Assembly: GCA_950097015.1 (NCBI GenBank)
Contig: CATNEN010000038.1
Coordinates: forward strand, 13,268,001 to 13,332,000
Direction of reading: 5' to 3'
Origin: Macrostomum hystrix
Lineage: Eukaryota > Animalia > Platyhelminthes
DNA length: 64,000 bases
This document shows, in pieces, positions 17,401 to 26,400 of the stretch. Position numbers and translations under genes: made by a program. The notes under the pieces are model-generated. The model was given only the letters and a program-made list of their open reading frames with translations. It was not told where the DNA came from and did not search any database. How positions within the stretch are numbered: the first letter of the stretch is position 1; every line of letters starts with the position of its first letter.

Positions 17401-20400
17401 AAGGGCGCCAGGAGCCAAGAAAGGGCGCCAGCGGCTGAAAAACGGGAGCCAGCGGCTGAAAAAGGGGCGCCAGCGGCCGAAAAGGGGCGCCAGTGCTGCG
17501 ACTGGCGCCCCTGGTGGGGGCATCTTATTCCCATGATTAAAATTTAGGGGGGCGACTGCCCCCCGCCCCTCCCCCTAAATCTGCCTCTGTATACAGTATG
17601 CATGTACACGCGTATACATAAGGAAAATAGCCATGGCATAACAATAACTATGTCAAAGAAACAAAATTAAACTGTTTCAGAGTTCAGAGTTAGACAGGTC
17701 AAGGTCAATTCGTGACTACTTTTCTATGTCACCTCAAGGCCTGGGGATACACCACATTCTTCGTTCTTCCCCTTGGTGCGAAAATGAATAGGCCAGCTGG
17801 AGTTCCAACACGGGAGCAGGCGACATAAAGCTGCCCATGCGAGAAGCAAGGAGTCTCCAGGTTGATGCCAGCCACCTTCAGCGACTGTCCCTGAGCCTTG
17901 TTAATAGTCATCGCAAAGCACACTCTCACAGGGAAGGAACTGCAGTCGCTTGAACTGAAATGGCAGGTCCGTGGGGATAATTGGAATCCGGGGAACGAAC
18001 ACAGACTCTCCTCTGCCAGATCCAGTCATTATCGTGGCCTCAATCACGTGTGGGAAGAGCCGCCTGACTATCAGTCTGGTGCCGTTACACAGCCTTGGCA
18101 CATTCAGGTTGCGGAGGAGCATAATTGGTGCCCCAACTTTCAGCTGCAAATTGTGCGATGGAGTTCCAGGAGGATCTAGAGAGTTCAGAAACTCAACAGG
18201 ATACTCCACAGCGGTGTCATCAGTCAACGTTGTATCAATTGACTTGTAGGTGAAAACTGCACCTGGCAACTCCTGAAGCAGTTGGTAGTTAATTTCGTTG
18301 GCGGCATCATTTCTAGGACACAGAATTGCCCTCTCTGACAGCCAGTCAATGTCAGCATATCGAACCATCAGGTTCGGGTAAACTTTTGCCTTGAGCTTTT
18401 TTGACGATTTTTGAGCAGTTTTTTGCACTTTTGAGCAGGAAGGAAATGATTTTTCGGGAATTTGAGTAGCCTATTGCACTCAGCGTAGGTGGTTTTAGGT
18501 ATGTGCAAAGTTTGGTGCGATTTGGTTGAGCGGTTTCGGCGTCTATAAAGACAAAAGACAGACACTGGGACGCCACCGCACTCACTGCACTCAGTCTCAG
18601 TGCTGCTTGGGGCCAGTAGACAGTGTAGGGGTTTGGGCTGTGTACATTCACGGCTTGAAATACAGTGTACAGTCTGGGGCTTCGGCGCCCGGGGAAGGGA
18701 GGGGGTGGCTGTAATAAAATTTGGCCCGCAGAGTGGCGGAGGGGAGTTGGGGTGGCTGTCCTCGGAAAACAAAAAGTGACTCACTTTGAGATGATGCAGC
18801 TTTGTTCTGGATTGAGTAGAGATGTTCAAAATTGACAGCATTGTTGGAAAACATGTAAAGTGTAAGTGGATCAAATTTGGAGAAAATCTGACAAAGTGGG
18901 GCGACGATATGTCGAATTGAGTGATTTTTTGACGATTTTTGAGCAGTTTTTTGCACTTTTGAGCAGGAAGGAAATGATTTTTCGGGAATTTGAGTAGCCT
19001 ATTGCACTCAGCGTAGGTGGTTTTAGGTATGTGCAAAGTTTGGTGCGATTTGGTTGAGCGGTTTCGGCGTCTATAAAGACAAAAGGTTGCACACAGACAG
19101 ACAGACAGACAGAGTTTTCACTTTTATATATATAGATACACTAAGGAGATCAAAAAAGGTCATTTGGCTTTTTGTGTACTGGTATGCTGTCCGTAGTTAG
19201 CAGTGTGCTGAAGCTACTACTATTTACAGCCATTGATGTGTGCAAGAAATACACTAAGGAGATCAAAAAAGGTCTTTTAGCCTTGTCAAGGTTCGTCAAT
19301 AGTTGTTTTGGAATCAGGGATGGGACTAAATGTGAATTTTCTTGGTTGACGATAAAAAAATTGACACAGTTGCCATGGCCACTGCTATGTCATAACAATC
19401 AACTTTTTAAAAATTATATCCCAGCTCAGTTTTTAGGCATGATAGGCCTATGACAAAAAAACTAGCAAAAAATTTGGGCATTTAGATGATCAAATTACTG
19501 GTCTTAAATTACCTCCTTACCTCCATACACTTATTTGTCATTCTAAAGTAAGCAAAAAATGCAAAAGCAGTGGCAAAATTTTCTAATTTAAAGCTTTAGC
19601 TAGCTACTATTTGTGTTCAACAACTTTTTTATGTGGATAAATTTTTGTAATAGGTCTATTTTTCTGCATTATAGCTGGTGATGGTTTTCTTTTTATTTTC
19701 TCGCGCTACAAAATTTTATTACATATTTTATATACATATAGTATATTACATATTATAAATATTTTATATACTTTATATAGTTTAGTAAATATGCGTTATT
19801 AAAACAAAGTTGATAAATGCTATATAAGCATGAAGTTTTTCGTGGTGATAATACAACTCGCCAGTGAGCCAAGAAAGGCAATATCTGAGTAAGAAGATCT
19901 ATTTGAATAAAGCAAACGTGTTGTGTTAGTTATTGAGGAAAACACATTTAGTGCGAAACCGAGGATTGAGGCTGTGACCCTCTGATCCTGGAGAAACGCC
20001 CAGCAGAGACTGGAGAATAGTAAGCCAGTGCCTTAGAAGGTTAAACCGCTCGTGCCGAGTGATACGCTACCATTAGAGAGAAAAGTAGAGAGACAAGCCC
20101 TGTTACAACTTTGGTGGCAGCGGAAAGGGATCAGAGAAACGGCCTCAATCGAGAATAGAGTAGATTATCCAGAAGAACGAAAAGTTCATAGAAAATTCGA
20201 TTATTATGCTGATAATAGCGGTGCTGATGAATCAGCAGCCAGGTATCCCTCCACTATTTGGAAGTGGTGGAACACAGTCAATGTTCGGAAATAATGGAAA
20301 GCAGACAGTGCCTGGAAGCCAGGAAGAAAAGAAAAAGCCTATGGGAAGAGGCATGATTTCGATGCAGAATAAGCAAGATATGGAGTACATCACAGAAAGG

Positions 20401-23400: not shown

Positions 23401-26400
23401 TTTTATTACATATTTTATATACATATAGTATATTACATATTATAAATATTTTATATACTTTATATAGTTTAGTAAATATGCGTTATTAAAACAAAGTTGA
23501 TAAATGCTATATAAGCATGAAGTTTTTCGTGGTGATAATACAACTCGCCAGTGAGCCAAGAAAGGCAATATCTGAGTAAGAAGATCTATTTGAATAAAGC
23601 AAACGTGTTGTGTTAGTTATTGAGGAAAACACATTTAGTGCGAAACCGAGGATTGAGGCTGTGACCCTCTGATCCTGGAGAAACGCCCAGCAGAGACTGG
23701 AGAATAGTAAGCCAGTGCCTTAGAAGGTTAAACCGCTCGTGCCGAGTGATACGCTACCATTAGAGAGAAAAGTAGAGAGACAAGCCCTGTTACATTTTTT
23801 TAATTGCAAGTTTGTTCATTTTGGTGAATTAAAATGAATATTAACTAAAAGTTAGACTAGCTCTTAAAGCCATATTATAAAATAAAATATAAAAAACTGC
23901 TTCATCAGTCTGTTGTGGTCCTATTGCAATATGTTCATGTGTTTATATGGACCCATCTCTTTGGGCTACTGTATGATATTCTAGTCAGATTAGGCATGCT
24001 AGTGATTTAGAGGGTTATGGCTCTAGTAGTAGTGCTGGCTCTAGTAGTTTTACTAGTAGTGCTGCTAGTATTTTACTAGGTTTCTGGTTATTTTTAATGT
24101 ACACTGGCACAACCATGGGCTTCAAGGCAAAGTGCAACTGCCCCACTTTTGCCAGAGGAACCAAAATATAGTAAGGGGGCAAGCCAATTTTTCATCTAAA
24201 CAGCTCTAAACCCTATCTGACAATTGTCCAGTATGATTTACCTTTGGTCTGCCTCTCTACATACCCCTTTTGGAAAATTGTAGGTGTGCCTGTCTGGACC
24301 ATATATTCTTACACATTGCGCCATGACAGTCTAGCAAAAGTATGCAAGATGTAATCTACAAAAATACTACCTATACCAATAGACATACATGCGCAACCTC
24401 CCAAATCTTAGCTGGCCATGCAACTTAGATTTTGCTCTATTTACGACTTATTTTGCTCTCATTTGTGACTTAGTTCGTTTCATTGCTATATTTACAACTT
24501 AGTTTGCTCTCATTTGCTCTCTTTCTCTCTCCCCTTTTTCCTTTTCTTCATGCCTTCCTTTTTTGTCCCTTGGTCCCCCCTTTGATTTTTTTGCACTTGG
24601 TCGATTGGTTTTTGAGACTTACCTTGCTTGGCCCTCGTTTCACCCAGCCGGTTTGGCCGGGTTGGCCGGGTGTTGTGCATGTATGCCTATAGAGATTAAA
24701 ACTAACAAGTTTAGCATTTGCACAAATTCAAATTTTATCACTTGTAAGATTTTATATTTATTTATAATAATAAACACTTTGTCTTTTATACACTAATAAA
24801 CTTCTCAAACTTGACGTATATATAAATAACGGTAAAACTAAAACTTTTTGAACTTTATTCCTTTAAAAAAGTTTCCATGTTAACAGGTTTATTATTATAA
24901 ATGTCTTAAGTATATATATTATAAGAAATATTTACCATGCCATACTGGATAACAGACTATAAAGGGATGGACAATAAAATGTACTGCTTTGTAATTTAAG
25001 CAATAAAACAAAAATGCAAGTGCAAAAGTTCAAGGGAAGTGAATCAATCCTAGACAAAGTAGGGATTTTAATAAAAAATGAAAATCCTAAGTTATACATG
25101 CTAGGATATGTTGATGCTTCATTGTGAGCAATTAGAGTTTCCATTTAAATAGAAAGAAGTAAAAAATATAAAGAGATGAAATTCAAGTGAAAGACATTTC
25201 TAGAAGTTGTATTGTGATGGATAAAAAGTAGAACACACTTATTTGGGAATTAAAACTAGCGTAAAATTTGTTTATATCTATATATATAAAAGTGAAAACT
25301 CTGTCTGTCTGTCTGTCTGTGTGTGTGTGTGTGTGTGTGTGTGCAACCTTTTGTCTTTATAGACGCCGAAACCGCTCAACCAAATCGCACCAAACTTTGC
25401 ACATACCTAAAACCACCTACGCTGAGTGCAATAGGCTACTCAAATTCCCGAAAAATCATTTCCTTCCTGCTCAAAAGTGCAAAAAACTGCTCAAAAATCG
25501 TCAAAAAATCACTCAATTCGACATATCGTCGCCCCACTTTGTCAGATTTTCTCCAAATTTGATTCACTTACACTTTACATGTTTTCCAACAATGCTGTCA
25601 ATTTTGAACATCTCTACTCAATCCAGAGCAAAGCTGCATCATCTCAAAGTGAGTCACTTTTTGTTTTCCGAGGACAGCCACCCCAACTCCCCTCCGCCAC
25701 TCTGCGGGCCAAATTTTATTACAGCCACCCCCTCCCTTCCCCGGGCGCCGAAGCCCCAGACTGTACATTGCATTTCAAGCCGTGAATGTACACAGCCCAA
25801 ACCCCTAGACTGTCTACTGGCCCCCAAGCAGCACTGAGACTGAGTGCGGTGAGTGCGGTGGCGTCCCAGTGCGCAGGGCTCTCCGGTCGATATTTCTCTC
25901 CAGCCAGCCTGGGATAGAAGAAAGAGAGAGGCTGGCGATCAACTGATGGGTGGTGTCACTCTGCTGCTGTCTGGAGACTTTAGACAGACGCTGCCTGTGA
26001 TTCCGCGTGGCACTCCTGCTGATGAGATTAATGCTTGCCTAAAATCATCTCACCTGTGGCCATCGGTTGTGAAGTTGCACCTACGAACAAAACATGAGAG
26101 CTACAATTCAAGGAGACGAAACAGCTCATGAGTTCTCTGCCAATCTATTGCGAATCGGCAATGGTCTGCTGGAGATTAGCACCGAGGATGGGCAGTCATC
26201 GATCGCTACAATCGGAACCATTGTGCAGTCAGTGCAGGAGCTCAAGGCAAAAGTTTACCCGAACCTAATGGTTCGATATGCTGACGTTGACTGGCTGTCA
26301 GAGAGGGCAATTCTGTGTCCTAGAAATGATGCCGCCAACGAAATTAACTACCAACTGCTTCAGGAGTTGCCAGGTGCAGTTTTCACCTACAAGTCAATTG

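Follow-up and report, generated by a model that had tools for sequence, protein, structure and literature searches.

The window, that is the whole 64-kb stretch of DNA analysed here, contains a young copy of an LTR retroelement of 4149 bp (19646..23794) without detectable gag/pol domains, which carries a 321-aa open reading frame (ORF) whose product evolves under purifying selection. This product is not an Env protein and belongs to an uncharacterised family. The host is probably a Macrostomum species different from M. lignano. Its five-helix domain, as modelled, has no clear match to known structures. The explanation that we prefer, at a little short of an even chance, is a helper-dependent element of Ty3/gypsy type that carries a likely nuclear regulator similar to Tas or TRP28.

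Structure of the element

Both LTRs are 462 bp long, are bounded by TG and CA and differ at no position (95% upper bound of divergence 0.65%), in agreement with the sequence-only reading, which had described them as identical. The tRNA-Leu primer-binding site (PBS), the polypurine tract (PPT) and the AATAAA supplied by the 3' LTR, all reported there as well, could be located (Table 1). The PBS, TGGTGGCAGCGG, lies 4 nt past the 5' LTR and occurs only once within the window. Its complementarity of 12 nt refers to the tRNA-Leu-AAG 3' end as given in the supplement of PMC10886601; parts of the same source list a tRNA-Leu-AAG primer site likewise for Gypsy-130_CGi and Gypsy-57_CaAu. The TTTT on either side of the element is located within T runs of low complexity and hence does not prove a target-site duplication (TSD). 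Assignment to the Ty3/gypsy type is tentative, with the PBS type and the possible 4-nt TSD as leads only. No tRNA gene was found within the window. A canonical heat-shock element was also absent, the single GAAnnTTC being located outside the LTR. Donor-like GTAAG sites are present in the RNA sequence of the element.

Table 1. Features of the element, in positions of the window.
Feature	Position	Strand	Remarks
Possible 4-nt target-site duplication TTTT	19642..19645, partner 23795-23798	+	Low complexity; from sequence
5' LTR, 462 bp, TG..CA	19646..20107	+	TATAAATA at 19754, AATAAA at 19906
Primer-binding site	20112..20123	+	12 nt complementary to tRNA-Leu-AAG 3' end
Small open ORF in gag position, 102 aa from first ATG	20206..20514	+	C-x2-C-x10-H-x-C motif at 20422-20472
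Purine-skewed non-coding interior	20515..22126	+	No six-frame gag/pol match; common to contigs of all four runs compared
Cluster of 7 GCCT(A/G)A motifs	21205..21449	+	Candidate protein-binding or packaging signal (inferred)
TATAAATA, candidate internal promoter	22127..22134	+	63 nt before ATG
321-aa ORF	22190..23155	+	Acidic amphipathic motif, EAPxRxPTRP, Gly/Ser linker, GKR, five-helix domain
Polypurine tract (PPT), T run just before	23316..23331	+	From sequence
3' LTR, identical to 5' LTR	23333..23794	+	AATAAA at 23593

Translation of the element in six frames, with X at stop codons, gave no match to gag/pol Pfam families. For pol (RT, RNase H, integrase) no long frame and no Pfam match was present in any of the six frames, which bears out the description of the element as pol-less. 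A stretch of 2.1 kb is free of any gag/pol remnant. The earlier suggestion that the replication genes are decaying is therefore unsupported: remnants of gag or pol were not detected, and many copies have this non-coding interior in common.

The gag position is occupied by the small ORF, which has no Pfam match. The canonical Gag knuckle follows the pattern C-x2-C-x4-H-x4-C, from which the C-x2-C-x10-H-x-C motif of the small ORF departs. What had been read as a broken knuckle is a C/H motif that lies within an open frame of 102 codons. Five of 10 differences in this frame are silent (P 0.08-0.15). The density of the GCCT(A/G)A cluster was reached in none of 5000 shuffles, for a stretch that was picked after the motif had been spotted.

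Coding capacity and expression signals of the 321-aa ORF

The long ORF is open and GC-rich, as first described, with a GC content of 0.62 compared to 0.39 in the remaining interior. Among 1000 dinucleotide shuffles of its non-repeat part, 12 kept the frame open. The candidate TATA box is present at the expected distance from the ATG; as a motif alone, however, it is not significant, since chance alone puts a TATAWAW into a stretch of this kind in 6% of cases. Between this motif and the ORF lies an upstream frame of 3 codons (at 22162). Counted from the LTR, 45 ATGs precede the ORF, which places it out of reach of scanning from there. Hence, a short internal RNA is the most likely messenger.

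An origin of the internal promoter from an old LTR copy was considered and rejected: common 8-mers were not significant (208 of 2000 shuffles), local alignment was significant under only one of three scorings, and no reliable motif shared by the LTR and the internal promoter was found.

Protein family and predicted fold

The 321-aa protein consists of an acidic amphipathic motif (aa 13-25), the motif EAPxRxPTRP (aa 37-46), a disordered Gly/Ser linker (aa 50-118), GKR (aa 118-120) and a five-helix domain (aa 203-318). The sequence-only reading had called the gene an orphan. This does not hold, since five relatives exist among 1.84 billion proteins, four of them Macrostomum lignano models and one from another assembly (domain identity 38-50%). 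The M. lignano hypothetical proteins Mlig016073.g1/Mlig008906.g2, Mlig008543.g1 and Mlig026206.g1/g2 have the C-terminal domain in common with the 321-aa protein at 38-49% identity, and in Mlig016073 the entire architecture is present. The M. lignano loci of the domain are those of PAA77797.1, PAA83213.1, PAA73844.1, PAA76031.1 and PAA60020.1. The acidic motif, EAPxRxPTRP and xKR are conserved in all three full-length proteins, so that the acidic N-terminal motif and the KR motif pointed out earlier are kept in both other full-length members; the linker is variable. Net charges are -13, -6 and -7 for the N-terminal stretch, and +7, +5, +9, +4 and 0 for the domain in five members. P0010 is a member with a non-basic domain. 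The M. lignano models P0012, P0013 and P0016 comprise the domain alone, and P0014 is fused to pieces of a non-LTR RT/RNase H.

The protein is not an Env, as had been concluded before, because a signal peptide and a transmembrane anchor are missing (no hydrophobic segment; highest 19-residue hydropathy 1.08) and the N-terminus is acidic.

A five-helix model of the 120-aa domain was obtained with a pLDDT of 86, while single-sequence prediction was uninformative (pLDDT 40). The model is all-helical, and the folded domain comprises about 120 aa instead of the helical region of about 170 aa given in the first description. Pfam returned nothing above cut-off for the 321-aa ORF, the small ORF or the protein family. 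A word-based protein search with aa 125-321 gave 0 of 1051 candidates, and a profile search of proteins gave 2 of 7993, both already among the five relatives. Sequences in the PDB did not match the domain. Foldseek against PDB and BFVD yielded nothing at E 0.001 (best E 1.1 and 0.71), and in VIA-align none of 48,161 chains reached a Z of at least 8, the best (Z 7.1) being generic bundles, e.g. B12-cap domains. No capsid chain was among the structure matches listed by Foldseek (PDB, BFVD) and VIA-align, which does not in itself exclude a capsid fold. The fold offers no hint of a function. The ESM Atlas, queried with P0011, gave no usable feature match (best TM 0.51), and a related locus was found neither in viral contigs nor in metagenomes (0 of 394). 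Two further matches were discarded, namely a PDB profile match to R2 retrotransposon proteins (E 1.0-1.2) as chance and a weak, single Rfam match on the Gly/Ser repeat.

The M. lignano models derive from an RNA-seq-based annotation, and according to parts of PMC5730564 the GenBank set left out transcripts on annotated repeats. Such a repeat-filtered gene set fits host genes and unclassified elements equally. The four M. lignano ids are named in no paper's main text. They are also absent from the supplements of PMC12801592, PMC5816591, PMC7806878 and PMC5730564, which says little, since a shorter control prefix is mostly absent too.

Copies, selection and the origin of the ORF

The non-coding interior and the 321-aa ORF are both represented among contigs from four public runs, which come from three studies. 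In run X1 the depth is 221-1610 inside the element and 67-181 on its flanks, depth being a rough guide. Public runs also contain numerous diverged contigs, and the sequences flanking the LTRs vary, which shows that copies are dispersed. The family is multi-copy, with several diverged versions of the ORF. Several diverged contigs can be aligned through the TATA block, and one (depth 74.4) cannot.

For the selection analysis, the C-terminal domain of diverged contigs was compared with the ORF of the element, using the 40 differences displayed out of 69. Of these 40, 26 are silent and 14 are replacements, and 25 fall on third positions. The resulting pN/pS of 0.19-0.23 (P 3e-7 to 7e-6, for 40 of 69 differences) supports the earlier proposal that the ORF is under selection; in the worst case, with the remaining 29 all replacements, P rises to 0.025-0.12. 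One copy is net 8 nt shorter within the domain and consequently out of frame. A single contig suggests a further copy broken near codon 298.

No contig spans the whole element. Host loci or elements with pol could therefore harbour the diverged ORF versions, and the signal of selection cannot be tied to the pol-less copies. As to its origin, the ORF could be an accessory ORF3 that belongs to an autonomous Ty3/gypsy family, with the element as a deletion derivative that still carries it; selection would then have acted for the most part on the helper lineage, with pol-less copies hitch-hiking. The slot before the PPT is usual for an ORF3, as parts of the literature describe for bdelloid types (PMC5408684) and for the Oikopleura Tor env with its internal promoter (PMC4402516). 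In runs X2 and X9, contigs agree with the element at the LTR end and the PBS and then run into other sequence; no helper was seen in the 30 letters that such ends cover past the PBS. Broken ORF copies exist, and the diverged contigs used in the selection test may come from other genomic settings. Against this origin speak 2.1 kb devoid of gag/pol remnants and a non-coding interior that is itself multi-copy and present in all four runs compared. The lack of the four M. lignano ids in the supplements of the M. lignano LTR paper also argues against it, albeit weakly because the id scheme may differ. We regard this origin as somewhat unlikely.

Alternatively, the ORF may belong to a gene family of the Macrostomum host. 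The element would have picked up one member along with its promoter and would now be amplifying it as a passenger, with selection working on the host paralogues. The GC3 of the ORF (0.67) is unlike the AT-rich element and falls in the range of 0.54-0.68 seen for host genes and for the other elements in the window, the M. lignano relatives belong to the repeat-filtered gene set and are classed 'Non-Specific' for body position, and three diverged contigs have a single-locus-like depth of 71-74 (flank 67). Yet the protein searches found relatives only in Macrostomum-type data, and the many fast-diverging paralogues, the truncated models and the RT/RNase H fusion of P0014 are more typical of mobile DNA. 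Moreover, 259 nt of the element interior that precede the TATA box recur in one diverged contig at 84% identity. We consider capture of a host gene quite unlikely.

Proposed mode of action

We prefer a helper-dependent element with a regulator gene. Gag and Pol of a tRNA-Leu-primed Ty3/gypsy helper would package and reverse-transcribe the LTR transcript in trans. The ORF would be expressed from a short RNA that begins some 30 nt downstream of the TATA box and extends to the AATAAA of the 3' LTR; splicing or spliced-leader trans-splicing may serve instead. For the protein, a regulator role, nuclear location and recruitment of coactivators are predicted as likely from its sequence and by analogy. 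The KR motif would carry it to the nucleus, and the mostly basic five-helix domain would bind nucleic acid of the family or chromatin, with the GCCTRA cluster as a candidate site. The acidic amphipathic N-terminal helix would recruit coactivators, as in foamy-virus Tas made from an internal promoter, and the protein would stimulate transcription, either of the element itself or of the helper. Taken further, this model would describe genus-old pol-less LTR 'regulator satellites' in Macrostomum that have lost all replication proteins. From an internal promoter of their own they would express a nuclear protein with a new fold, which activates or counteracts silencing, and they would receive Gag and Pol from a helper in return. 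This extended version is unlikely in our judgement.

The Arg-rich helical domain, the NLS-like motif and the donor-like sites in the element RNA would also suit a protein acting post-transcriptionally, like CERV or Rev, by binding unspliced element RNA and aiding its export or its packaging into helper particles. A precedent is Cer1 of C. elegans. The conserved acidic amphipathic N-terminus fits an activation domain better. According to parts of PMC10309623, CERV arises by splicing with gag and contains a domain of Rossmann type, whereas our model is all-helical. We consider an RNA-export function very unlikely. It is scarcely credible that the gene is a selfish effector directed at the host (drive or poison/antidote) with no part in expression of the element: a gene that is conserved in an element without replication genes of its own must bring some benefit, but no analysis gave a positive sign of such an effector, and the Pfam, PDB-profile and structure searches showed no similarity to known families.

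According to parts of PMC12801592 and PMC5730564, surveys of LTR elements in M. lignano begin at the reverse transcriptase or discard unclassified elements. Consequently, pol-less coding families have likely been missed and their genes filed as those of hypothetical host proteins. Should the protein act in trans as an activator or anti-silencer, it would add an animal case with an undescribed helical domain to the short list of Tas, CERV, plant VANC and TRP28. If it is confined to pol-less copies, helper and non-autonomous elements would divide their labour via a regulator rather than Gag. RNAi and transgenesis in Macrostomum make a direct test of the activator role possible.

Comparison with known systems

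LARDs likewise have LTRs, a PBS and a PPT without pol, but they possess a long interior without coding capacity, a definition that does not cover an element with an ORF under purifying selection. TRIMs are non-coding and shorter than 1 kb in the definition given in parts of PMC10886601, in contrast to the 4149 bp and the selected ORF observed here. Nevertheless, the element resembles TRIM, Helenus and Ajax in having LTRs, PBS and PPT without pol, and its tRNA-Leu-AAG PBS corresponds to that of some Gypsy and Helenus families of animals (parts of PMC10886601).

RLG_Quinta, also without pol, is, like the present element, a proposed supplier of a protein to its partner, but it supplies Gag (parts of PMC11302176), whereas the 321-aa protein has no Gag match. 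The ORF3 genes of bdelloid and Oikopleura elements and CERV of Cer1 are lineage-specific extra genes as well, some driven by internal promoters and one coding for a nuclear regulator. As far as described in parts of PMC5408684, PMC4402516 and PMC10309623, they reside within gag-pol elements, and their products are Env proteins, enzymes or, in one case, an export factor spliced with gag. In particular, CERV has a Rossmann-type G domain and exons shared with gag (parts of PMC10309623), compared to an all-helical model and a single-exon ORF here.

The plant Retand elements (Tat) correspond in several respects, namely an additional conserved ORF located past the pol position and ahead of the 3' LTR, a proposed DNA-binding regulator as its product, repeats in this region and some non-autonomous copies (parts of PMC11963269). 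Their TRP28 ORFs are antisense and contain a known domain according to the same excerpts, while the 321-aa ORF lies in sense orientation (the PBS/PPT strand), comes from an animal and has no Pfam match. Retand also differs in that our element is without any gag/pol match.

The gene for foamy-virus Tas is part of a complete retrovirus; in Tas the acidic domain is C-terminal, and DNA targets are proven (parts of PMC517496), while the function of the 321-aa protein is a prediction. Similarity to Tas did not appear in the PDB-sequence, protein, profile, Foldseek and VIA-align searches. Tas/Bel1, an accessory gene by the 3' LTR with an internal promoter and a nuclear transactivator of the acidic class as its product (parts of PMC517496), serves as our working model, in which the candidate TATA box and the conserved acidic and KR motifs of the 321-aa protein would play the corresponding parts.

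Element architecture and coding capacity

Both LTRs of the element measure 462 bp, start with TG and end with CA. They are identical to each other, as the sequence-only reading had judged by eye, so that their divergence is bounded below 0.65%. The polypurine tract and the tRNA-Leu primer site named in that reading are likewise in place. The latter comprises 12 nt complementary to the tRNA-Leu-AAG end (supplement of PMC10886601), a primer also used by two animal Gypsy families according to the accessible text of that article. TTTT on either flank is a possible, if unprovable, 4-nt target duplication.

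The 321-aa ORF is the sole long frame of the interior, and six-frame translations of 20108–22189, with X in place of stops, gave zero matches to gag or pol families. Thus the element lacks pol, as had been claimed, and the proposed decay of replication genes is not borne out, since there is no sign of pol decaying within it. From the LTRs, primer site and polypurine tract, a Ty3/gypsy helper would copy the element in trans. That the ORF is ORF3 of this helper, merely carried along, appears unlikely, though it deserves consideration.

As for the gag knuckle described as broken, a C/H motif does lie in the gag position, but its frame is open over 102 codons, with an unusual C-x2-C-x10-H-x-C arrangement and no match in a Pfam search. 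Five of the ten differences listed between contigs and element are silent here (P 0.08–0.15), and none of the ten touches the Cys/His residues. Judged from its sequence, the small ORF may encode a minimal nucleocapsid-like protein rather than being a ruin.

Features of the element and its surroundings (positions in the window)
Feature	Position	Details
596-bp satellite	1-12500	20 copies, 94-100% identity
Diverged inverted satellite pieces	12.6-14.1 kb	
Helitron Pif1-helicase pieces	17064-19138, 25276-31765	tandem units of about 2.3 kb; one inverted unit across the LTR element from the rest
LTR element	19646-23794	LTR pair, primer site, polypurine tract
5' LTR	19646-20107	
Primer site	20112	
Small ORF	20206-20514	
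GCCT(A/G)A motifs	21205-21449	seven, spaced 30-50 nt; 0.1 expected from remainder of window
TATA motif	22127	
321-aa ORF	22190-23155 (+)	
Polypurine tract	23316-23331	
3' LTR	23333-23794	
Compact host genes	32723-49323	DEAD-box helicase, single-exon Sm protein B-like, mitochondrial ProRS, selenoprotein-N-like
Non-LTR retrotransposon	53090-58389	ORF1, endonuclease-like frame, 940-aa RT + RNase H frame
Broken P/THAP-like transposase piece	59103-60415 (-)	weak match to TNP-like RNase H (E 0.006)

Among the host genes, the helicase is presumably of DDX3 type, and selenoprotein-N-like is our assumed name for a gene with no Pfam match. The mitochondrial prolyl-tRNA synthetase frame shows 72% identity to M. 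lignano proteins and 34–41% to the remaining six of its eight matches, which makes a Macrostomum species distinct from M. lignano the likely host.

Copies and selection

The ORF region is present in nine public sequencing runs from three studies (at least half of its words in six), and contigs of four of the nine were aligned to the element. In run X1, summed contig depth, which is no copy number and is taken solely as 'many copies', was 67–181 in the flanks, 220–3705 in the LTR bins, 406–1610 in the non-coding interior and 221–711 in the ORF. Near-identical contigs occur alongside diverged ones, in agreement with a multi-copy element. The diverged contigs carry 80 differences across 22588–23047, 38 across 22093–22347 and 42 across 21855–22113; some are alignable at the promoter block and the C-terminal domain and unalignable in between. 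Pieces of the non-coding interior were found in all four runs, hence the window's copy is not alone in its pol-less layout. No contig, diverged ones included, spans the whole element. In one X1 contig, 345 nt of left flank run into the LTR start with no differences. Run X9, which bears a second organism label, yielded low-depth contigs of LTR, interior and promoter/ORF start when 19300–24100 was compared, including 22111–22301 with 6 differences in 191 nt; these represent a close relative or carry-over.

Selection on the ORF, as previously proposed, was found in diverged contigs of two runs aligned to 22770–23180. Taken singly, 26 differences are silent and 14 residue-changing among the 40 of 69 differing places listed, and third codon positions hold 25 of these 40. 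With an expected silent share of 0.26–0.30, pN/pS is 0.19–0.23 (P 3e-7 to 7e-6), a value that covers only parts at least 80% alike and changes that are not independent; with all 29 remaining differences as replacements, the worst case, P is 0.025–0.12. Silent to changed codons per contig are 14:8, 7:5 and 6:1, and the middle region of the ORF has three of each among six differences listed. One contig (depth 70.9) is a net 8 nt shorter within 22942–23027 and is therefore out of frame, and a loose end in one contig suggests another copy broken near codon 298. Both count against an all-intact family. Broken copies are normal among mobile elements. That the ORF is a selfish effector seems very improbable.

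Protein family and expression

When 1.84 billion proteins were searched in full with HMMER, five matched the ORF protein: three M. lignano hypothetical proteins, one protein from another assembly and P0014, probably a chimeric M. lignano gene model, in which the family domain is fused to a relative of the non-LTR element at 53090–58389. A profile search found no further members. The relatives' domains are 38–50% identical to that of the window's ORF. All three full-length proteins have the acidic amphipathic motif ([10 protein letters not shown] in the window), EAPxRxPTRP and xKR, along with a low-complexity linker that varies between them and the C-terminal domain. This domain has a near-identical end point in four of five clusters and is basic in four of five members. 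The feature is real, and the family is uncharacterised and genus-restricted; capture of a host gene is a rather doubtful origin for the ORF.

The 321-aa protein contains no hydrophobic segment and is thus not Env, as had been argued. The predicted helical C-terminal region is upheld by an AlphaFold model with five helices (pLDDT 86, pTM 0.81, 8 aligned rows). Foldseek gave no structural match at E 0.001. The best VIA-align hit, with no higher match, had Z 7.1, under that program's own meaningful level for helical bundles. Searches with this model point to no known function, and they do not establish that the fold is new.

The M. lignano identifiers were named in no publication found in our literature search. 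They stem from an RNA-seq-based annotation from which transcripts on annotated repeats were removed, with a repeat library that omitted unclassified elements (accessible text of PMC5730564), and all are 'Non-Specific' in the positional RNA-seq table seen in the supplement of PMC7336406.

Since 45 ATGs intervene between LTR and ORF, the latter needs its own [11 protein letters not shown]. The candidate TATA motif is well placed, yet has a chance occurrence of 6%. Several diverged contigs stay alignable across this block and one does not; the TATA letters lie outside the 40 of 480 differing rows listed. Trans-splicing, which affects 38.8% of M. lignano genes according to the accessible text of PMC5730564, is an alternative expression route.

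Proposed function and comparison with known systems

We tentatively favor, at somewhat less than an even chance, an element that relies on a Ty3/gypsy helper for copying in trans and carries the gene for a nuclear regulator. In such a product the basic helical domain would bind, the KR motif would direct nuclear import and the acidic helix would recruit coactivators, roles generally assigned to parts of this kind. A CERV-like RNA export factor is an improbable alternative product. The structural and selection claims, which we hold with high confidence, are much firmer than this functional one.

Extra genes, internal promoters and non-autonomous partners of LTR elements are each already known. 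In a literature search that covered few subscription journals and not Repbase, we found no published account of the ORF protein family, nor of any Macrostomum family of LTR elements that lacks pol yet codes for protein. The M. lignano LTR survey, as far as its accessible text describes, starts from RT (PMC12801592) and would consequently miss such elements. If true, a gene confined to pol-less elements and acting in trans on the helper would be of greater significance. In the accessible text of the respective articles, Retand TRP28 has a like regulator role, itself proposed (PMC11963269), and foamy-virus Tas is a nuclear regulator working from an internal promoter (PMC517496); Tas is thus a model for the ORF product, known here from its sequence.
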